A stretch of DNA of 15,950 nucleotides. It comes from a virus. Taxonomy: Duplodnaviria > Heunggongvirae > Uroviricota > Caudoviricetes. The stretch lies in the IMG/VR virus record IMGVR_UViG_2657245448_000017; one strand, written 5' to 3'. The translations under genes and the position numbers were made by a program. Below are positions 6,789 to 15,950 of this stretch, one piece after another; positions within the stretch are counted from its first letter, which is position 1, and each line of letters opens with the position of its first letter. Under the pieces are notes generated by a model that had not been told where the DNA came from, searched no databases, and saw only the letters and a list, made by a program, of their open reading frames with translations.

Positions 6789-6873
6789 TACTGCAACTCC
6801 ATTATTGGCGCCGAACTTCCTGACGGTGATAGCCTGCAAGCTCTCACACCAACAGAACCGAAGGAGGTTCGAC

Positions 6874-7110
6874 ATGTCTGTAAATTCACTGCCTTACGGC
6901 AAGTCTCCCGAAGAAGCCGCTCACGATCTGGCCATGAATCTTGTCTTGTCTGGTCACTTCAAAACATTCCAGAAGTCGCCAGAAGAGGTTTTTCAGTTGA
7001 TCACCAATGCAGAACTGGTCTTCAGTGAGCTTTACCGAAACAAACTGAAGGAAATAGAGTCCGCCAGATCAAAAGAAACCGAAGAGCAATATCAACGTAC
7101 GCAGTGCTAG
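6874..7110 (+). CDS. Hypothetical 78-aa protein encoded antisense to the early-right operon
   Basis: Near-consensus SD AAGGAGG (6861-6867) six nt before ATG 6874. Protein-like sequence MSVNSLPYGKSPEEAAHDLAMNLVLSGHF.... Its stop codon overlaps the stop of the convergent gene 7107..7352. Confidence 0.45.
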   Translation: MSVNSLPYGKSPEEAAHDLAMNLVLSGHFKTFQKSPEEVFQLITNAELVFSELYRNKLKEIESARSKETEEQYQRTQC

Positions 7111-7352
7111 CCATGAACAAACGAAAGATAGAACGTTGAATAACCACGGGCGGCGCTTTCAACTGCCGCCTGTATTTCCTCCGCGGATCTCCCTCTAAGG
7201 ATCATCTCGTTTATCAGCTCGCCAATAAGGGGAAGGACAATTGGCTGGAATGACATGTAAACCCGCATCTTTCCTTCGGAAATGGTTATTTGTCCTTCAT
7301 CGCTTTTAGCGGTCACGCTGTTTGTATCTTTTGTCTCGCTGCTGTTACCCAC
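7107..7352 (-). CDS. Hypothetical 81-aa protein downstream of cro
   Basis: GTG start at 7352 with GAGGAG six nt upstream; amphipathic helical-looking sequence; same strand and operon as cro. Confidence 0.4.
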   Translation of the reverse strand: MGNSSETKDTNSVTAKSDEGQITISEGKMRVYMSFQPIVLPLIGELINEMILRGRSAEEIQAAVESAARGYSTFYLSFVHG

Positions 7353-7624: not shown

Positions 7625-7761
7625 AGTTTTTCTCCTGTGGTTTGAGGTAAAAGTTGTTGGCACCATTGATCATACAACCTAAACAACTTTTACCACAACT
7701 TTTAGGTGTTGGAAAGCTAAAACATAAAGTTGTAATCTCTCCTAATACAGGGGGTAAAGTT
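7625..7761. promoter_or_regulatory. OR-like divergent promoter/operator region between cro and cI
   Basis: Five perfect copies of AAAGTTGT or its reverse complement (7650-7657, 7683-7690, 7696-7703, 7726-7733, 7756-7763). Candidate PR -10 TATGAT on the minus strand at 7668-7673. Confidence 0.6.
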
Positions 7762-8448
7762 GTGAATACACTTGCGGAACGACTAAAAATAGCTAGAGAG
7801 AAGAAAGGCATGAGCCAGGCTCAGTTAGCCGAGCTAATAGGCCTGTCTCAACAATCTGTGGCGAAAATTGAAAATGGAGATACGCTTCAACCTAGAAAGA
7901 TCAAAGATATTGCGAAAGCTTTAGATGTATCCCAAAAATGGCTACAGCTCGGAATTGAGGAGAATGGCTCTATTTCTGATTTTGTAGTTGAGGAACTTGA
8001 AGAAGCAAAACTTGATCCTGAAGTATTTGCCAACATACCCGTTCTCGATGTTGAGTTCTCTGCTGGCAATGGATGTGAAGCCGAAATTGTGGAATCAGTT
8101 GTTGATTCGTTCCCTCTTCGTCGTTTCGATCTTAGAAAAGCTGGAGTCAGTCCTGCTAACGCAAGAATCGTAAAGATTTGGGGCAACAGCCTTTTGCCAG
8201 TATTGAATAATGGGGATCATGTCGCGATTGACATGTCACAGTCGAAACCTATCAGAGATGGTGATTTATACGCTGTTAGAGATGGAGTTTTACTTCGAGT
8301 TAAAGTTCTTATCAATCAACCAGATGGTGGTTTGATACTGCGGAGTTTCAACAAAGAAGAGTACCCGGATGAAGTACTCAACTTTGATGAAAGAAGAGCC
8401 AGAATACACGTTATTGGTCGCGTGTTCTGGTCTTCACGTTCATGGTAG
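7762..8448 (+). CDS. cI: CI-like prophage repressor (N-terminal HTH, C-terminal LexA/S24-type autocleavage domain)
   Basis: HTH QAQLAELIGLSQQSVAKIENG. C-terminal domain with Ala-Gly site (FSAGNG), Ser in GNSLLP and Lys in LLRVKVL, alignable to lambda CI. Start chosen at GTG 7762 after GGGGG (7750-7754), giving 228 aa; the upstream TTG at 7654 lies in the operator region. Confidence 0.85.
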   Translation: MNTLAERLKIAREKKGMSQAQLAELIGLSQQSVAKIENGDTLQPRKIKDIAKALDVSQKWLQLGIEENGSISDFVVEELEEAKLDPEVFANIPVLDVEFSAGNGCEAEIVESVVDSFPLRRFDLRKAGVSPANARIVKIWGNSLLPVLNNGDHVAIDMSQSKPIRDGDLYAVRDGVLLRVKVLINQPDGGLILRSFNKEEYPDEVLNFDERRARIHVIGRVFWSSRSW

Positions 8449-9321
8449 AGCGTGAAAAAGCATTTCTTCTGAAATGATTTTTAACTTAGCCCCTTCATCA
8501 TCTCTATATGAGACTGCTTTTTCTATTTTCCTTCCGTGACTGGAGAACTTCCAGTCACGCGAGGAAAGAGTACCAATTACGAGAAAATCAATTCTCTTTG
8601 TGATTCCGCTGGAAATCAGTCCATTATTCTTTTTAATTAGGTCTTCAACATGTGCTCTCTTTCCTGCCAAAAAAACACCCGTTAAGCAAAATGTTTTATT
8701 TTCAACAGAAACTTCAGCAGTATTATCTAATGGTAATTTAGTAGAAAGCCCATCTACGACGCCGCTTGCAAGGTCACAACCAGTAAAATCTACCAGCGCC
8801 TTGTGTAGATTTTCACTTTCTTCAGTGGTGATGATCCCATCGCTCAGAATCTCTTTTACTAAAGCGTATAGTTCCTTTCCTGGATAATTACTTTTTAGCG
8901 CCCCGTTCTGTGTTAACCACCAGTCCAGGTATCTCACTTCTTCTTCACTTAAGGTTCGATCTGATATTAAACCCTTGCAAAGACCATTCAACAGATGCAG
9001 ATCTGACTCACTGGAGAATAAATCCACATCGGGTATATCGAGTATTTGTCTTTGTATATCATTAAGATGCAGTTTTAATTCACCACGCTCATCATCAGAA
9101 ACAACACCATCGGCCAGTATTTTAGAAACCCTAACACTTAGACTCTTGATAACACCATTTCTAATGGTTTGGTTGGCTTCAAGTAGCCAAGTATCAAGAT
9201 ATAGCACCTCTTCATCCCGCACATGTCCATCGGCAAGAATCCCATCAATAATGCTGATTAAATTTGCAAAAAGCTTATTTCTATTTTGTGTGTAGTTAAA
9301 AACGTAGAGCTTGTCTTCCAT
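8440..9321 (-). CDS. Tandem TerB-like repeat protein with C-terminal BRCT domain (uncharacterised)
   Basis: 293 aa from ATG 9321 with AAGGAGG four nt upstream. Four copies of an (I/L)L(A/S)DGxxx(D/E)EExxxL motif resembling the paired motifs of TerB domains. C-terminal 80 aa (KTFCLTGVF...IDFLVIGT...) aligns by eye to the LigA BRCT domain. Convergent with cI, overlapping it by 9 bp. Confidence 0.7.
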   Translation of the reverse strand: MEDKLYVFNYTQNRNKLFANLISIIDGILADGHVRDEEVLYLDTWLLEANQTIRNGVIKSLSVRVSKILADGVVSDDERGELKLHLNDIQRQILDIPDVDLFSSESDLHLLNGLCKGLISDRTLSEEEVRYLDWWLTQNGALKSNYPGKELYALVKEILSDGIITTEESENLHKALVDFTGCDLASGVVDGLSTKLPLDNTAEVSVENKTFCLTGVFLAGKRAHVEDLIKKNNGLISSGITKRIDFLVIGTLSSRDWKFSSHGRKIEKAVSYRDDEGAKLKIISEEMLFHALP

Positions 9322-9557
9322 ACAGCCTCCTTTTTTGAACATCCTTACATTCAGACGCCCCACAATCAAACCACATAAAGTTGTTGACATAACCATTATT
9401 CACAACTAAATTACACCTTAAAGTTGTTATTACGATTTACAACATTACAACTAGCCATAAGCAACAGCGAACAGGCAGGACGCCCACGAAGTAGCCGCCG
9501 GTGGCGTATGAATAACCGGATGATTCGCTCAATAAAGTTAGGTAGGGGAATTTCACG
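9322..9557. promoter_or_regulatory. OL/PL-like operator-promoter region
   Basis: Plus-strand promoter with -35 TTGACA (9384-9389), 17-bp spacer and -10 TAAATT (9407-9412). Operator 8-mer AAAGTTGT at 9377-9384 and 9420-9427, plus partial copies at 9402-9410 and 9447-9452. Confidence 0.55.
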
Positions 9558-9770
9558 ATGAATGCAGCACAACGCCGAAGGGCTTATCACAAACACCCGA
9601 AAGTTGGGGACACTGTAATTTTACGAGGCATTCCTCGCCTAGTACTGGGTCCGTGTACGTTCAACAGCCTTACTGGCGAAGAGCGTAGCAAACCTTCGGT
9701 AAGCCGTGTCAGGGTTCAAATGACTGGCGGCTCAACAGCTGCACCACTCGTACGTAATTTAAAGTTTTAG
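9558..9770 (+). CDS. Putative N-like antiterminator with N-terminal arginine-rich motif
   Basis: 70 aa. N-terminus MNAAQRRRAYHK parallels the lambda N ARM (MDAQTRRRERRAEK). First gene downstream of the PL-like promoter. Confidence 0.45.
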   Translation: MNAAQRRRAYHKHPKVGDTVILRGIPRLVLGPCTFNSLTGEERSKPSVSRVRVQMTGGSTAAPLVRNLKF

Positions 9771-10070
9771 CGATAAACAGGTGTCTTCGGGAGGGGTTAC
9801 GGGCTGGAGTGACTACCAGCATCGACAGCTCTATCCGACGAAACGGAACCGTCTAACCCGCGGTTGTCGGTGAAAAGTACCGTAGGGATGCCAGCTAGTC
9901 ACTGGCCCCCGCCCGAAGATACCTACCACCGCGCCTGATGTGGTTAAAAGCAGGCCAAAGCAATAACAAGTACTTCCCTGTTCTGGCGGCCCGGTGTTTT
10001 CCCACTTGTCCGGTCACCGCCAGCCTTTTTCAGGGCACAACGACGAGAGCATTGACGAGCAAGGCATAAG

Positions 10071-10150
10071 TGCTGGTTCGATTCCAGACAGTCCCATTCT
10101 GTTGGGAGGGTTGGGCAGGGAAAAGGTTCGTTCGATTCGAACACCGGCAG
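10071..10150 (+). other. tRNA-like element (T-arm plus acceptor stem), non-canonical, inside an ORF-poor island
   Basis: Perfect T-arm GTTCG-TTCGATT-CGAAC (10126-10142). A 7-bp acceptor pairing TGCTGGT (10071-10077) with ACCGGCA (10143-10149) includes one G-U pair. D-stem-like pairing is present, but the anticodon arm is non-canonical (6-nt loop) and there is no encoded CCA. Confidence 0.25.
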
Positions 10151-10556
10151 TGCTCTCTTCGTTGTGGTGAATGCGCAGGCTGATGCGCTAAACCGTGAGG
10201 GAGTGTCCCGAAAGGGTGCGTCACTGGTAATCAACCCATGCCGGAATATCGTAGTACCGGCCACCACAACCAAATCACGCTTAGGACCGTGATAACCGTA
10301 GTTCCAGTATTGCTGTGTGTAGTCTTGGCGGTACCAGGGTCTTCAACCTTATGCAAGGGGGACGAAGATAATGTTCTACCTCGGTACCGCCCTTTTTACG
10401 CAACAGAAAAGGGCATCACCGGGCGACGGGCTCATAACCCAATCCACCCTGGCAAAAGACAGCGGTCTCTGCAAGCCGCCGACCAATGCAGGTGTCCTTC
10501 TCTGTTGTGTATGGAGAAAACACGGCGGTGGAAGCCGCCTTAACGAGGGTAAAACC

Positions 10557-10928
10557 ATGAGTAATGACCGCATGACCGTAGTGCCAGATTTTCTTGGCGA
10601 ACTGGATGCCGGCGTGTTCATGAACAAAATCGCGGCAGCACTTAATACCACCGCGCTTGGCGTTCTGAACAATGGCAACAAAGGCAAAGTAGTCCTCACC
10701 TTTGATTTTGAGCGTATGGGTAATTCCGTTGAAGAGAAGCGCGTGAAGATCAAGCACAAGCTGAACTACAGCACCCCGACACCGCGTGGTAAAGCCTCCG
10801 AAGAGGACACAACCGAAACCCCTATGTGGGTTAACAAAGGCGGGAAGCTCACCATCCTGCAGGAAGACCAGGGCAACTTGTTTACCCTCGGCGGGGATCC
10901 GGACGGAAAGTTACGCGCGGCGAAATAA
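10557..10928 (+). CDS. Hypothetical early-left protein (possibly YfdP-like)
   Basis: 123 aa from ATG 10557 with GAGGG seven nt upstream; the longer track ORF (10371) begins inside the ORF-poor island. Family assignment is tentative. Confidence 0.55.
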   Translation: MSNDRMTVVPDFLGELDAGVFMNKIAAALNTTALGVLNNGNKGKVVLTFDFERMGNSVEEKRVKIKHKLNYSTPTPRGKASEEDTTETPMWVNKGGKLTILQEDQGNLFTLGGDPDGKLRAAK

Positions 10929-10985
10929 GCCGCGATTGATAGCCCTTAGTTTCAGTTTTTCTACATCTATCTTTAAGGAATTTTT

Positions 10986-11813
10986 ATGTCTCAGTTAGAC
11001 AGCGGTACCTTCAAGCAGGTCAAAGACCTGGTTCTTTCCGGTTATCACCTGAATGATATTCATGGCCTGGCTTGCCCGACCGCATTACTGCCAGAGGGTA
11101 CTGGCGTTGAAAGCCTCGAGCGTTTTTCTCTGGAGCGTTTCCGCTTCCGCGGTGCCATGACCACGACCAGCATTGAAGATTTTGCTCGTTATTCAAAAGG
11201 CTATGCCAGCGCCACTGAAAAAGCACGCTGCTTTATTGACGCTGACCATATGACAGCCCGTTCAGTATTCAACATTGGCACACTCGATAACCCCGGTCAT
11301 GCGGACAATGTTGCATCCATCACCCTAAAACAGACCGCACCATTCCGTGCTCTTCTCCAGATCAACGGTGAACGTCTGAAACAAAAACAGATCGCCGAGT
11401 GGCTGGAAGACTGGAGCGATTACCTGCTGGCGTTCGATGCTGATGGCAATACGATGCAGATTTCACAAGCCGCCCAGGCTGTTCGTCGTATAACTATCCA
11501 GCAGGCAACCCAGCAGGATCATGAAGACAGCGATTTCAGCGGCAAAAAATCGCTTATGCAGAGTATTGAAGCCAGCAGCAAAGACGTAATGCCGGTAGCG
11601 TTCGAATTCAAATGTGTGCCGTATGAAGGTTTAGGCGAACGCCGCTTTAGCTTACGCAACAGTTTGCTTACAGGTGATGAACCTCGTTTTGTACTGCGCA
11701 TAGTACAACTGGAAGCCCAGGAAGAAGCTATCGCCAACGAATTCCGCGATTTGCTGATCAGCAAGTTCGAAGGTGAATCAGTGGAAACTTTCATCGGTAA
11801 CTTTAAAGCCTAA
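10986..11813 (+). CDS. YfdQ-like protein (DUF2303-like), uncharacterised
   Basis: 275 aa, AAGGAA SD five nt upstream. Length and position match the CPS-53 prophage yfdQ as I recall it; no motif checked. Confidence 0.6.
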   Translation: MSQLDSGTFKQVKDLVLSGYHLNDIHGLACPTALLPEGTGVESLERFSLERFRFRGAMTTTSIEDFARYSKGYASATEKARCFIDADHMTARSVFNIGTLDNPGHADNVASITLKQTAPFRALLQINGERLKQKQIAEWLEDWSDYLLAFDADGNTMQISQAAQAVRRITIQQATQQDHEDSDFSGKKSLMQSIEASSKDVMPVAFEFKCVPYEGLGERRFSLRNSLLTGDEPRFVLRIVQLEAQEEAIANEFRDLLISKFEGESVETFIGNFKA

Positions 11814-11825
11814 TTGCTCTGCATT

Positions 11826-11849
11826 AAATCCCCGGCGCCGCGGGGATTT
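11826..11849. terminator. GC-rich hairpin, candidate intrinsic terminator (possibly bidirectional)
   Basis: 9-bp stem AAATCCCCG (11826-11834) / CGGGGATTT (11841-11849) with loop GCGCCG, followed by ATTTATT. Confidence 0.45.
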
Positions 11850-11941
11850 ATTGAAGCGTAATTCCATTAATTATCGCCATCCGGCGAGGGATTCGTGCAA
11901 CCAAAATCTGCGTGGTGCAGCGCGCCAATATGGAGAAAACC

Positions 11942-12481
11942 ATGAGCTACATTCAGACATTATCCGGTAAAAAATTTAACTACCTGACCGCCACAATCGA
12001 CGATATCGATGTTGAGGATATCGCGACTGCTCTTTCCAACATCTGTCGATTCGCTGGGCATCTGCCAGAGTTCTACAGCGTGGCCCAGCACTCTGTGCTT
12101 GTAAGCCAGATTGTGCCGCCAGAGTTCGCCTTTGAAGCGTTGATGCACGACGCTGCGGAGGCATATTGCCAGGATATTCCAGCCCCGCTCAAAGCCTTGC
12201 TGCCTGACTACCAGCGCATGGAAACTTATGTTGATGGTCTTATCCGCTTTAAATTCGGTATCCCGCTTGAGCAATCTGCCGTCGTGAAATACGCCGATCT
12301 AACCATGTTAGCTACCGAGCGCCGTGATCTGGAAATCGATAACGGTTCGAAGTGGGAAATTCTCGAAGGTATTCCCTGCTCTGATCTCGTTCAGGTTATC
12401 CCTCTCCGTCCAGGTCAATCCTATGGCCTGTTCATGAACCGCTTTAACGAACTGGCGGAGCTGCGCCAATGCGCCGCATGA
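11942..12481 (+). CDS. HD-domain phosphohydrolase (YfdR-like 5-prime-deoxynucleotidase)
   Basis: 179 aa from ATG 11942 with GGAG six nt upstream. N-terminal MSYIQTLSGKKF...DIATALSNICRFAGH and the H...HD metal-binding pattern (QHS...LMHDAAE) are typical of HD-domain YfdR-like proteins. Confidence 0.7.
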   Translation: MSYIQTLSGKKFNYLTATIDDIDVEDIATALSNICRFAGHLPEFYSVAQHSVLVSQIVPPEFAFEALMHDAAEAYCQDIPAPLKALLPDYQRMETYVDGLIRFKFGIPLEQSAVVKYADLTMLATERRDLEIDNGSKWEILEGIPCSDLVQVIPLRPGQSYGLFMNRFNELAELRQCAA

Positions 12482-12645
12482 AGGTAAAAGAACTCGTTAC
12501 GGAGGCTTTTGCCTCCGTTGCTGAACTGCCACCAAAGCATGCACCGCTTATGCGCGAAGTTGCCACCAGACTGGACGCTACGTTCGCAGCATTAAAAGAG
12601 TCTCTGGTGCAACTGGAACAGGAACGTAAAGGTAAGACGCCATGA
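12478..12645 (+). CDS. Small hypothetical protein (55 aa), not in the supplied ORF track
   Basis: Hand translation gives MKVKELVTEAFASVAELPPKHAPLMREVATRLDATFAALKESLVQLEQERKGKTP. ATGA start-stop overlap with the upstream gene at 12478-12481 and a second ATGA overlap with the downstream gene at 12642-12645. Confidence 0.5.
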   Translation: MKVKELVTEAFASVAELPPKHAPLMREVATRLDATFAALKESLVQLEQERKGKTP

Positions 12646-12896
12646 CCGTATTTGAATATCTCCAGGCTCATCCGAATACCACCAGCGGTGAAATCGCCAA
12701 AGGTATGAACAAAAAGACACCCGCGGTCGCTGGCGCATTATCGCAACTCTATGGCACCGGCCGGATCGTGAAGTCTGGTGTTCGCAAGGGAATTCCAACA
12801 TACCGTGTTAACGATATGCCGTTTGGGTGCAGTAACAGCCTAACAATGATGTTTAACCAGTTGTTGAATAGAGCCAGACAGGAATCAGCCCAATGA
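12642..12896 (+). CDS. Small putative DNA-binding protein (winged-helix-like), cassette copy 1
   Basis: 84 aa, translationally coupled on both sides; ends ...ARQESAQ, as does the paralogous small gene at 13519. Confidence 0.5.
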   Translation: MTVFEYLQAHPNTTSGEIAKGMNKKTPAVAGALSQLYGTGRIVKSGVRKGIPTYRVNDMPFGCSNSLTMMFNQLLNRARQESAQ

Positions 12897-13522
12897 CAGC
12901 ACTCAACAAATATGCGGCGCTGCGCCAGTTAGCAACTGATGCGCACGAGCTTGGCATCATCAAGCGTTACACGAAAGGCATCGAGGCCAATAAGCGATTC
13001 ATCGCCGCAGCCAACCCCGCCACTGTGCTGGCGCTATTGAATGAACTGGAAGCAGCCGAGAGCAAGTGCAGGCAGCTGGCGGCGGTAGTTGCTGAGAATG
13101 CGGCGCTGAAGGCAGCGGCAAAAGAAACCCTGGCTCATTGGGCTGCTGCTGAAGCAGGGGAAATGGAAATGATGATGGATAAGTGCATGCCAGCCTTGCG
13201 TGATGCCTACTGCAAAACCCCAGCCACCGACGCTTTCCTGGCTGAAGTGCGGGCAGGTGCAATCCCTGAAGGTTACGTGCTCGTGCCTCAACAAATCTTT
13301 CTTGACCCATCCGACATTGAGTCTATTTGCTCGCAATGCGGTGACGGCCATGAATCCGGGTACGGTGATTTTACTGACGGACTGTTGTGGGTTGGCAACA
13401 TCCAACATGACGACGGAAGTATTGTCCACGGTCTGCATATCTCATCGGCAGATTACACAGAGGAAGGTGGTGTAACAGTTTGCGAGTTCGCCGCCCAACT
13501 TCGCAAAGGAGCCACGCTATGA
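12893..13522 (+). CDS. Ea22-like (ead family) early-left protein, cassette copy 1
   Basis: 209 aa starting MTALNK with ANPATVLALLNELEAAE coiled-coil-like region. Shares an identical 25-bp start-region sequence with the gene at 13701. Confidence 0.5.
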   Translation: MTALNKYAALRQLATDAHELGIIKRYTKGIEANKRFIAAANPATVLALLNELEAAESKCRQLAAVVAENAALKAAAKETLAHWAAAEAGEMEMMMDKCMPALRDAYCKTPATDAFLAEVRAGAIPEGYVLVPQQIFLDPSDIESICSQCGDGHESGYGDFTDGLLWVGNIQHDDGSIVHGLHISSADYTEEGGVTVCEFAAQLRKGATL

Positions 13523-13704
13523 GCAAGTTAACAGTAAAGCAAATTGAGGTTCTCTCGTGCATTCACAAAGGCGAAAAACCATACGCAATTTGGCGGCAAT
13601 CTCTCAGAGCTTTACAGCGCAGAGGATTGATTACTAAAACCATATTTGGTTATTCCATTACCGCAAGCGGAATTGAAGCAATAAAGCAGGAGGCAGCCCA
13701 ATGA
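13519..13704 (+). CDS. Small putative DNA-binding protein, cassette copy 2
   Basis: 61 aa from ATG 13519 with AAGGAG seven nt upstream and ATGA overlap with the upstream stop; ends ...KQEAAQ. Confidence 0.5.
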   Translation: MSKLTVKQIEVLSCIHKGEKPYAIWRQSLRALQRRGLITKTIFGYSITASGIEAIKQEAAQ

Positions 13705-14531
13705 CAGCACTCAACAAACTAACAGACGAGCGGTTACAGGAAATCTACGGCGAGGCGGTACCGTGCGAACTGGCAGAGAAAAACGGGGCGTATATGGCTT
13801 CTTTCGACCTGCTTTGCAAAATGGACGATGTAGGCGGCACGGCGCACGTTGTCCGAAAGCTGATCGATATGCTCCGAGCGGAGAGGGTAGAGCTACAGGA
13901 ACTACGCCGTAACTATCTGGCTTTACGTGGTGAGATTGAGGACGTGCAGTCGCAGTTGTACGAGGCAGAAAACCAGGCTAACAAGTACGCCAGCGAGCTA
14001 CAGGAACGCCGCAAAGCTGATAGCTCTGAACCTGTTTTATATGCGATGCGGGGAGCCAACCTGGACACTGACGCCGTATCAACCTGCAAAAGTGTCGTAG
14101 ACGGCTGGGTTGAAGAATGGAATCAAGAACGAAAACCGGGTGAGCCAGAATACAAAACCGTACCGCTATACGCCGCCCCTCCAGCGCCAGTAGTTAACGC
14201 CGAGCCAGTGGCGTGGCAGTTTAAAGCAGTGAATGGCGAATGGATTAGTATCAGCGGAACTGGAAAGGATCAGGCTGTTAGTGAGGGATGCGAGATTAGA
14301 CAGTTATATACCACACCGCCAGCGCTGATAGTACCAGAAAAGCTACCGTGTTCGGTTGAGTTAAAGCCAGGCTTAATAATCGGCAAGGGTTGCAAAACAG
14401 AAATACTCCTGACAGCACTGAAATGCCGCGCTGATTTTTACGCTGAACTCGATACTATGACGCCAGAGCAAAAGGCGGAATATGAAAAAATACTTAGGCA
14501 TTTTACGTCTCTACAATCTGGCAATGTCTGA
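13701..14531 (+). CDS. Ea22-like (ead family) early-left protein, cassette copy 2
   Basis: 276 aa starting MTALNK with a coiled-coil-like central region (ELQELRRNYLALRGEIEDVQSQLYEAENQ). Confidence 0.5.
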   Translation: MTALNKLTDERLQEIYGEAVPCELAEKNGAYMASFDLLCKMDDVGGTAHVVRKLIDMLRAERVELQELRRNYLALRGEIEDVQSQLYEAENQANKYASELQERRKADSSEPVLYAMRGANLDTDAVSTCKSVVDGWVEEWNQERKPGEPEYKTVPLYAAPPAPVVNAEPVAWQFKAVNGEWISISGTGKDQAVSEGCEIRQLYTTPPALIVPEKLPCSVELKPGLIIGKGCKTEILLTALKCRADFYAELDTMTPEQKAEYEKILRHFTSLQSGNV

Positions 14532-14593
14532 CCGCAAACTGATTTCATATATTCACTAAGTGGCCCATCACTGGTCCATACTCTGGGGGAAAA

Positions 14594-14827
14594 ATGTCCA
14601 GACTGATTTTACTCTCCGAATGGGCGAGATCAGAGTTCGGTGACCCGATTCCGAGCAAGTCCACTCTCAACAAATACGCCAAAAACGGGATGATCTTTCC
14701 TCTGCCTTGCCGTGTTGGGAAAAGCTGGCGCGTTGAAGCTAATGCCCGATTTACTGGACTCACAACAGAACCAGTAATTAAAAATCAAGATCACCCACTA
14801 CTCAGAAGGATTTTAGAAGATGGCTAG
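14594..14827 (+). CDS. xis: Excisionase (lambda Xis-like)
   Basis: 77 aa. LILLSEWARSEFGDPIPSKSTLNKYAKNGMIFPLPCRVGKSW parallels lambda Xis (LTLQEWNARQ...TVRRWVRECRIFPPPVKDGR). Overlaps the int start by 8 nt, as in lambda. Confidence 0.75.
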   Translation: MSRLILLSEWARSEFGDPIPSKSTLNKYAKNGMIFPLPCRVGKSWRVEANARFTGLTTEPVIKNQDHPLLRRILEDG

Positions 14828-15950
14828 ACCTCGAAAACACAACGTGACCATTCCCGGATTGTCATGTTTCCTGGATTCGAGGACCAACAAGGTGTACTGG
14901 AGGTATAAGCACCCTGTAACTGGTAAATTTCATGGATTAGGAACAGATGAGCAAGTTGCTAAAGAAATAGCTGTGGAAGCAAATAGCCGGCTCGCAGAAA
15001 GACAAATGCGGCACACTTTTAAAATCAGAGAAGAACTTAATAAACGGTGTGGGCTTTCTACAACGGTAAGCGAATGGATTGTTCGGTACCGAAAGTTGCA
15101 GGACCAGCGTTACGAAACTGGAGAGATAAAACTCAATACGCTCAAGCAGAAAAACGCCCCACTTAACGTTTTCGAAAGTCATCTTGGCATGCGGTCCATC
15201 GACAGCATAACAGTTAAGGATATAGTTGGGATCCTCGATGACTACAAAAATAAAGGCCAACTACGGATGGCACAAATTGTACGCAAAGTGCTGTCGGATG
15301 TTTTTAAAGAAGCACAGCAGGTAGGAGAAGTACCGGCAGGATTTAATCCAGCTGAAGCTACAAAAAAACCGCAGGTCCGTGTCTCCAGACAACGCCTGAC
15401 GTTCGAAGAATGGCTAATGATCTATCAGGCAGCCAAAAAAGATAATTACTTTCTACAGAAAGGAATGCTGCTGGCCATCATCACAGGACAGCGGTTGGCC
15501 GATATTTGTAATATGAGGTTTTCAGATGTCAGAGATGGTCACCTCTTCGTTGAACAAAGTAAAACAGGTGCCAAAATCGCAATACCTTTAAAGTTACGTT
15601 GTAACAAGTTAAACATTTCTCTTGAAGATGTAATCTCTCAATGCCGGGACAGGATACTTAGCCCGTATTTACTACATCATCACCACGACAAAGGGAAAGG
15701 CAAAAGAGGCGGAATGGTAAAACCGGCATCTCTAACTGGTGCGTTCAGAAAAGCACGTGACTCAGTTGACTACGACTGGTCAAGCAAAGGTGCTCCCCCT
15801 TCTTTCCATGAGCAACGTTCTTTGGCTGAAAGAATATTCAGGGAGCAAGGTATCGACACACAAATTTTGTTGGGCCATAGCAGTAAAGTAATGACTGATC
15901 ACTACAACGACACGCGTGGCAAAGAATGGAAAAAACTGGTCATTTTATGA
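14820..15950 (+). CDS. int: Tyrosine integrase, lambda Int family
   Basis: 376 aa with blocks alignable by eye to lambda Int: ITGQRLADICNMRFSDV...LFVEQSKTGAKIAIP and FHEQRSLAERIF...LLGHSSKVMTDHYNDTRGKEW. Stop codon is the last three bases of the window. Confidence 0.9.
   Translation: MARPRKHNVTIPGLSCFLDSRTNKVYWRYKHPVTGKFHGLGTDEQVAKEIAVEANSRLAERQMRHTFKIREELNKRCGLSTTVSEWIVRYRKLQDQRYETGEIKLNTLKQKNAPLNVFESHLGMRSIDSITVKDIVGILDDYKNKGQLRMAQIVRKVLSDVFKEAQQVGEVPAGFNPAEATKKPQVRVSRQRLTFEEWLMIYQAAKKDNYFLQKGMLLAIITGQRLADICNMRFSDVRDGHLFVEQSKTGAKIAIPLKLRCNKLNISLEDVISQCRDRILSPYLLHHHHDKGKGKRGGMVKPASLTGAFRKARDSVDYDWSSKGAPPSFHEQRSLAERIFREQGIDTQILLGHSSKVMTDHYNDTRGKEWKKLVIL

Follow-up and report, generated by a model that had tools for sequence, protein, structure and literature searches.

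The window analysed here is the whole 15,950-nucleotide (nt) stretch of the viral record IMGVR_UViG_2657245448_000017 (Caudoviricetes), and the subject of this report is a short sequence, linker A, that lies in it twice, at junctions between four consecutive genes called small1, large1, small2 and large2 (Table 1). Both copies contain the exact 25-mer CAGCCCAATGACAGCACTCAACAAA on the plus strand, with a start-to-start spacing of 808 nt. The likeness extends leftward to a 32-nt repeat in which 30 of 32 positions are identical (12879-12910 versus 13687-13718). No 25-mer match arose in any of 200 dinucleotide-preserving shuffles, even with three mismatches tolerated.

The 25-mer comprises the last two and a third codons and the stop of the small gene, followed by six codons, MTALNK, of the large one; stop/start overlaps of the form ATGA join small1, large1, small2 and large2 in turn. 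Copy 1 has a weak Shine-Dalgarno sequence, GGAA, then the small1 end QESAQ, the ATGA overlap and the large1 start MTALNKYAALR. Copy 2 has the Shine-Dalgarno sequence AGGAGG, the small2 tail QEAAQ, the ATGA overlap and MTALNK. Its right limit is AACAAA, where native large2 sequence (CTAACAGACGAG...) starts. In an nhmmer search, the profile of 145 linker instances matches copy 1 at 12877-12921 (41.8 bits) and copy 2 at 13686-13719 (38.9 bits).

Table 1. Coordinates of the genes and junctions discussed, numbered along the window
Feature	Position	Strand	Content or basis
small1, 84 residues	12642-12896	+	Winged-helix protein (MarR/FeoC-like), predicted; common upstream partner of linker A
Linker A, copy 1	12879-12921	+	Exact 25-mer at 12886-12910; 32-nt repeat; nhmmer
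large1, 209 residues	12893-13522	+	Ead/Ea22-family mosaic with EaE-like C-terminal part
DNA between the 25-mers	12911-13693	+	Most of large1 and nearly all of small2; unique
Linker B	13484-13531	+	large1 end (..EFAAQLRKGATL and stop), ATGA overlap, small2 start (MSK..)
small2, 61 residues	13519-13704	+	Winged-helix protein (predicted); rare family, no sequence kinship to small1
Linker A, copy 2	13687-13718	+	Exact 25-mer at 13694-13718; 32-nt repeat; nhmmer
large2, 276 residues	13701-14531	+	Eaa-like mosaic: coiled coil, shuffled C-terminal segments, grafted linker A 5' end
Excisionase gene	14594-14827	+	Pfam Exc, E = 1.5e-8
Lambda-type integrase gene	14820-15950 (window end)	+	Arm-DNA-bind_1, Phage_integrase

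The remainder of the window is a lambdoid prophage, with a Q antiterminator, RusA, Dam, a CII-like protein and a cI-like S24 repressor encoded elsewhere in it. Since the excisionase and integrase genes are the neighbours of the four-gene block, the linkers are placed in the exo-xis ('ea') part of the lambdoid leftward early operon. Scans of the window against Rfam and for tRNAs gave no match.

The original prediction, made from the letters of the window, had described a perfect 25-bp repeat at these two places and a head-to-tail layout of two gene pairs. The exact search and the shuffles bear out the repeat and both its positions, and the layout agrees with the open reading frames found. The repeat was said to span the small gene's stop and the first seven codons of the large one; the stop is indeed included, but the codons number six.

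Linker A in other genomes

An exact search finds the 25-mer in 118 IMG/VR viral contigs and in seven one-genome-per-species records, namely five Citrobacter, one Shimwellia and one metagenome-assembled genome labelled Bacillota. That last record, L120 (JAEWMQ010000060.1), is a 3.3-kb contig with an exact enterobacterial linker and is probably a mis-binned fragment of an enterobacterial prophage. In every instance the linker bridges two genes, across either an ATGA stop/start overlap or a short gap. When 99 non-redundant instances are anchored on the ATG, conservation stays at the background of about 35% up to -15 and rises through CAGGAGG; beyond the 25-mer it runs on through CAGGCGCTGCG (95-73%) and is back at background by about +36. 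Linker A is a unit of about 45 nt, extending from about -15 to +30 of the ATG, and consists of the Shine-Dalgarno sequence and a spacer, the final four or five codons of the upstream gene (..QEAAQ), the ATGA overlap, and some ten codons (MTALNKQALR) of the downstream one.

The genes on the two sides of the unit differ greatly from locus to locus. Upstream genes end in EAAQ, GAAQ or ESAQ just before the stop and are otherwise unrelated, falling into at least 24 unrelated clusters that include a P2-type GPA replication protein, DndB, MT-A70, an HNH endonuclease, Lar and DUF4752. At several loci the in-frame upstream reading is just four codons long, and the upstream half of the linker is non-coding yet conserved. 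Downstream genes all start MTALNK(QALR..). Among 88 non-redundant downstream partners, 59 are Ead_Ea22 proteins and two are DNA methyltransferases; the other 27 are mostly without a Pfam match, four having single weak matches. Single-linkage clustering chained 111 of 117 downstream partners into one cluster, so the diversity on the right-hand side is largely mosaicism inside one family. Most loci have a single linker copy by nhmmer. Tandem copies were found in the window, in the identical contig L012 and in L080, and weakly in L109 and L141; tandem copies of the MTALNK allele are therefore uncommon.

The downstream genes also share a 3' end. In the related loci L001-L173, 107 of 149 distinct MTALNK-initiated proteins end in AAGIGVKGE, and a 3' junction of about 35 nt (GCCGCTGGCATTGGCGTGAAGGGGGAGTGAGATG) is conserved in their genes. 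With both junctions conserved, the MTALNK genes of these loci have standard ends and variable middles. The DNA methyltransferase gene of L119 is framed by the same 5' and 3' ends. Neither large1 nor large2 of the window has the AAGIGVKGE 3' end.

The limits of homology between loci coincide with the linker. In an all-against-all blastn comparison of 135 distinct 1.6-kb linker contexts, the linker, as a stretch from about -15 to +30, is all that 8412 of 9038 pairs (93%) have in common. Where more than 100 nt of homology exists on the left, it is lost at +15 to +49 in 266 of 299 pairs; where more than 100 nt exists on the right, it is lost at -40 to -1 in 308 of 334. Only 30 pairs share both sides. 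On either side of the linker, the breakpoints scatter across about 15 nt instead of falling at one fixed nucleotide. The window itself behaves in the same way: in more than 25 loci, a match that begins at about 10300-11900 gives way to divergence at 12896-12925, and homology with a prophage of E. coli Nissle 1917 stops at 12924.

Within the linker, the nucleotide sequence is held more tightly than the encoded peptide. A scan with the synonymous-free pattern ATGACNGCNCTNAAYAARCARGC found at least 120 contigs, and among the matches listed the identical 18-mer ATGACAGCACTCAACAAA is present in 126 of 137 distinct contexts (92%), against 0.26% expected for it from the codon usage of these genes' bodies. 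The upstream part, with the Shine-Dalgarno sequence and spacer, is more variable than the 18-mer. Synonymous sites this close to fixation are consistent with recent common descent of the block through repeated exchange, with strong selection acting on the sequence of the RNA or DNA, or with both. In RNA folding, both copies are less structured than their shuffles (z = +1.4 and +0.9), as would be expected of an open translation start; a structured RNA element is thereby ruled out. No inverted repeat or hairpin was found in the linker.

The four genes and their arrangement in the window

The two small proteins are both confidently predicted to adopt a winged-helix fold followed by a C-terminal helix, with MarR-, SmtB- and ArsR-like proteins among the fold matches. 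Small1 matches phrog_1687 (E = 3e-25), and its AlphaFold model, with a predicted local distance difference test score (pLDDT) of 84.9, retrieves winged-helix structures from the PDB. Its homologues form 69 clusters, mainly in Citrobacter and Salmonella, and vary in the final three to five residues. Small2 belongs to a much smaller group of 10 clusters, mostly from Enterobacter, in which QEAAQ ends 10 of 11 aligned sequences; its model (pLDDT 88.9) has MarR-like winged-helix matches in the PDB with template modelling scores of 0.7-0.8. Since both folds are predicted winged helices, the label 'putative DNA-binding' that the original prediction gave to the small proteins is fair for both.

The large proteins had both been called Ea22-like. 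This is right for large1, whose match to Pfam PF13935 (E = 1.5e-9; 39 bits against a gathering cut-off of 27) makes it a member of the Ead/Ea22 family, but not for large2, which gives no match to PF13935 at E <= 0.1 and is Eaa-like. Large1 also matches phrog_10746 (E = 1.8e-71), and at the nucleotide level window positions 13247-13509 are about 90% identical to eaE of Salmonella phage BTP1. Large2 has 820 partial homologues, many of them with DUF550 or DUF551 and named Eaa or Eaa1. None of the four proteins has a match in NCBIfam. With PADLOC, small1, large1 and large2 gave no match and small2 gave only a weak one to NDT_II-A (E = 0.0021), which we discounted.

Signs of shuffling are also present inside both large genes. 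A 40-nt block of large1 (window 13213-13254), encoding TPATDAFLAEVRA, recurs with 95-100% identity across dozens of otherwise differing Ea22- and EaE-like genes and may be an internal recombination patch of the gene family. Large2 has two proline-rich stretches, PLYAAPPAPVV and LYTTPPALIVPE (window 14157-14195 and 14298-14340). The same motifs recur where partial homologues of large2 switch to other segments, and they resemble joints at which domains have been shuffled within genes of the Eaa (DUF550/DUF551) family.

Comparison with other loci shows how the second junction came about. Relatives of large2 (P0084, P0088, P0124 and others) start MTNNKLTDE or MTTNKLTDE. In the Citrobacter locus L119 the native 5' end reads ggagtacaccATGACAACAAACAAACTAACAGACGAG (ATGACAACAAACAAACTAACAGACGAG), in L109 it reads ATGACCAATAACAAACTAACAGACGAG, and the window joint at the start of large2 is ggaggcagcccaATGACAGCACTCAACAAACTAACAGACGAG. 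Copy 2 has therefore displaced the native MTNNK/MTTNK start of an Eaa-like large2. The join is made by a 7-nt microhomology, AACAAAC, common to the linker and the native start, and because the join lies inside AACAAAC the perfect repeat ends exactly at ..AACAAA. As the relatives of large2 have their MTNNK or MTTNK starts and no linker, copy 2 was gained by grafting and not by duplication. Copy 1, on the other hand, is the native start of the Ea22-family gene large1, set behind small1.

Each of the four genes is found elsewhere with other neighbours, and small2 is not tied to large2: its relatives in Enterobacter and other genomes precede different genes, via MTALNK or via a P22-type allele (GTGAGCAACATCGACAAACAGTCGCTGCGT). 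The related prophage L109 is collinear with the window to 13526, then has about 1.1 kb of different DNA, and rejoins the window inside xis at 14638. Taken together, the separate partners elsewhere and the collinearity of L109 indicate that the arrangement in the window was assembled from separate pieces. In L109 itself, the prophage most closely related to that of the window, an MTNNK-initiated large2-like gene (6868-7246) seems truncated and fused into xis, and the jump in homology from window 14057 to 14638 suggests a deletion.

Window positions 10986-15950 are identical to the IMG/VR contig L012, and the exact large2 protein occurs in seven contigs, including E. coli drafts such as GCA_000939135.1, always in the same arrangement. 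In two of the drafts, L175 and L176 (E. coli GCA_000939135.1 and GCA_000940555.1), the prophage is integrated beside ompW and a UPF0259 gene. Among the complete E. coli genomes in the collection, none covers more than 21% of window 12400-14900.

Linker A as a probable site of module exchange

We consider it quite probable that the two 25-mers are copies of a conserved junction linker, located in the exo-xis (ea) region of Enterobacteriaceae lambdoid and P22-like prophages, that serves module recombination. The near-identity of the linker nucleotides in otherwise unrelated genomes would make it a patch of homology, at which phages and prophages that share a cell, by co-residence or co-infection, would recombine by means of host RecA or of phage single-strand-annealing recombinases. 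Efficient homologous exchange in E. coli requires a minimum of roughly 25-30 bp. A crossover inside the linker would restore both the end of the upstream reading frame and the translationally coupled start of the downstream gene, so that recombinants would be viable and the linker would travel with each exchange. It would persist since exchange within the block keeps both gene ends working. The original prediction had spoken of a recombination linker for module exchange, and had pointed to the module boundaries of related prophages as the place to look for the 25-mer. That proposal is now strongly supported by the 118 contigs, in which the 25-mer sits at stop/start junctions, by the promiscuity of the partners and by the breaks in homology at the linker edges.

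The same process could act within the window. A crossover between the two repeats would delete an 808-bp unit (12911-13693 plus one repeat copy) and would leave an intact, functional small1-linker-large2 joint. The earlier suggestion that the repeats could mediate deletion or amplification of the cassette is plausible in this respect, but its expected products did not turn up: no small1-large2 joint is present among the fetched loci, the seven contigs with exact large2 include no deletion or amplification variant, and a metagenome scan for the linker-large2 joint GCACTCAACAAACTAACAGACGAG returned 0 matches.

These negative results weigh against a role of the linker in exchange, and several other points do so as well. 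The evidence is comparative: what coincides with the linker are the boundaries of exchange, from which we infer crossovers inside it and the enzymes that may act there. The loci were picked for carrying the linker and include many related prophages in IMG/VR, so the counts given above are of pairs, not of independent events. Two thirds of the downstream partners belong to one mosaic family, and part of the diversity on the right is therefore intragenic Ead/Ea22 shuffling. Selection on the region of translation initiation could also account for the near-frozen synonymous sites. At copy 2, the 7-nt microhomology points to an illegitimate or microhomology-mediated event, not to homologous exchange. 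In addition, few complete E. coli genomes have the MTALNK allele (35 of 5426).

Some of these points are the strength of the main rival to exchange at the linker, in which the block is conserved for its function only, as an optimised start and coupling region or as a needed Ea22-type N-terminal peptide, has no role in recombination, and the exchanges are illegitimate recombination filtered by selection (the Hendrix model). The block does hold a Shine-Dalgarno sequence, the ATGA overlap and the first ten codons; its RNA is less structured than shuffles in both copies, as at an open start site; and the 59 of 88 downstream partners in one family have a shared amino-terminal segment (PMC10834534). 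The microhomology at the copy 2 joint is the best evidence for this view. Against it, identical nucleotides stand on unrelated genes, both the DNA methyltransferases and the Eaa-like large2, the upstream half is kept even where non-coding, and codon choice is fixed well past the need of the peptide. Nor are other start regions in the same operon shared in this way, and selection alone leaves the spread into more than 100 contexts unexplained. We therefore hold conservation for function only to be unlikely, though it deserves to be kept in view.

Two further explanations fare worse. The original prediction took the four genes for a tandem duplication in which a small and a large gene were copied head to tail and the junction alone stayed identical. 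The order of the parts is indeed parallel (a small winged-helix gene, the linker, a larger coiled-coil gene), the small proteins share a predicted fold, and both large proteins have a coiled-coil stretch. When the two small and the two large proteins are aligned, the comparison suggested along with that claim, there is nothing to set beside this likeness: BLASTP gives no alignment of small1 with small2, and for large1 and large2 only MTALNK and one weak coiled-coil match (12/32), so that no similarity extends past MTALNK apart from that match. An hhalign comparison of the alignments of the small1 and small2 families returns a relationship probability of 0.8%. Paralogy of the small proteins from their predicted structures was considered and dropped, both being only generic winged helices; this fold is too common to be a sign of kinship. 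Moreover, the relatives of large2 start without a linker, small1 and small2 pair elsewhere with other downstream genes, and the same 25-mer in 118 contigs means that the identity of the window copies needs no local duplication. A diverged duplication is thus already largely refuted and very improbable, and to annotate the window as a duplicated cassette would be wrong. To a dedicated site-specific exchange site, integron- or shufflon-like and with its own recombinase, we give almost no credence. The sharp edges of the conserved block, the cassette-like look lent by the AAGIGVKGE 3' end, and the nearby integrase gene would speak for it. But the linker lacks an inverted repeat or hairpin and an Rfam match, its boundaries are graded over about 15 nt per side, most loci have a single copy, and the neighbouring integrase, which has an arm-binding domain, is of the ordinary lambda type.

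It is tempting, though we think it distinctly doubtful, to see in the exo-xis region a recombination-driven array of gene cassettes with standard and actively maintained linkers at the 5' end (Shine-Dalgarno sequence, ATGA, MTALNKQALR) and, for the majority of the relatives, at the 3' end (AAGIGVKGE and stop, TGAGATG). If this were true, any cassette could be exchanged between the standard ends through short-homology recombination, translational coupling would ensure its immediate expression, and the exo-xis region would be a homologous-recombination counterpart of the integron. The shared N-terminal peptide could, in addition, be a common functional tag on unrelated proteins.

Relation to known phage junctions

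The origin of phage mosaicism has long been debated, with homologous exchange at linkers set against illegitimate joins filtered by selection. To our knowledge, most mosaic joints lack a linker. Short conserved boundary sequences have been proposed as foci of recombination in lambdoid phages, according to the passage of PMC3029335 that cites Susskind and Botstein (1978) and Clark et al. (2001), and De Paepe et al. found that about half of lambdoid mosaics have traces of flanking homology (PMC3945230). Like those boundary sequences, linker A is short, is conserved between genomes with otherwise unrelated flanks, and lies at gene boundaries in the early (metabolic) region, where breakpoints coincide with it. 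Unlike them, it overlaps coding sequence both upstream and downstream and sets the first ten codons of the gene that follows it. The linker consensus matches 48 phage records, including P22, epsilon34, ES18, ST64B, Sf101 and mEp213. Phage HK620, for which Clark and co-workers reportedly described seven boundary sequences, is absent from these 48.

The closest relative of the arrangement in the window is in P22. Its GenBank entry L06296.1 annotates a 26-bp direct repeat (repeat1, repeat2) at the starts of eaF and eaD, CAGCCCAATGAGCAACATCGACAAAC. This repeat lies, like linker A, among ea genes upstream of xis and int, and consists of an ATGA overlap and six codons; as in the window, two direct copies bracket a gene, and the upstream half of the repeat, CAGCCCAATGA, is that of linker A. 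P22 eaD continues with CAGGCGCTGCGTGAAG, as linker A does. The two differ in codons 2-5, where P22 has the allele MSNIDK, ATGAGCAACATCGACAAA, and about 19 of 26 positions are identical to the window linker when counted by eye. The P22 copies are 356 nt apart with one gene between them, whereas the 808 nt in the window hold the body of one gene and a second small gene. In lambda, where the allele is MSEINS, ea22 shares the 3' half of the linker, CAGGCACTGCGTGAAGCGGC, encoding QALREAAE. Given that the P22 repeat is already annotated, the window linker belongs to a known kind, the lambdoid boundary sequence.

Genes of the Ead/Ea22 family (PF13935; lambda Ea22, P22 EaD) usually begin with linker A, and the 59 of 88 partners belong to this family. 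Large2 is unlike this family in that it has only the six-codon graft and no PF13935 match. Ea22 proteins have been described as mosaic: they share an amino-terminal segment, have a coiled coil and differ in their C-terminal domains (PMC10834534, PMC7093339). This published mosaicism is at the level of the protein, whereas linker A is a nucleotide-level junction that is shared with unrelated upstream genes. A full-text search of the literature for 'MTALNK' returned no paper.

For the window, then, the finding is an ordinary one, a clean and well-populated case of a known mechanism and not a new kind of element. The linker itself is an unusually clear example of the linker type, being a 45-nt block in more than 100 distinct gene combinations with synonymous sites near-fixed. 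On this natural substrate, the amount of identity required by phage and host recombinases could conveniently be measured, and it could also help to test whether such linkers are kept for recombination, for translation, or for both.

A second junction, linker B, lies between large1 and small2. At least 25 loci match the window only over the stretch of about 45 nt that forms it, at 92-98% identity, and the homology between L109 and the window stops in it, at the position given above. The same type of junction also stands before MSK-initiated genes in L009, L067, L084 and L109. Linker B resembles linker A (CAACTTCGCAAAGGAGCCACGCTATGA versus CAACTTCGCCAGGAGGCAGCCCAATGA).

A 12-nt perfect inverted match, TCATTGGGCTGC / GCAGCCCAATGA, pairs 13135-13146 inside large1 with 13693-13704 in the upstream half of copy 2. 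It is probably due to chance, about 0.4 such pairs being expected in 3.5 kb by our estimate.

Elsewhere in the window, an open reading frame of 318 residues with a BRCT domain (8440-9396, minus strand; Pfam E = 1.4e-5; phrog_3989, E = 2e-114) directly adjoins the gene for the cI-like repressor (7654-8448). The same pairing occurs in L185, and the frame has a weak match to the PADLOC candidate PDC-S48 (E = 7e-5); it may be an accessory gene expressed in the lysogen. Between it and the first clear gene of the leftward operon lies about 1 kb (9400-10370) with no convincing open reading frame. A frame of 70 residues at 9558-9770, which has no family match, has an arginine-rich start (MNAAQRRRAYHK) reminiscent of N-type antiterminators.

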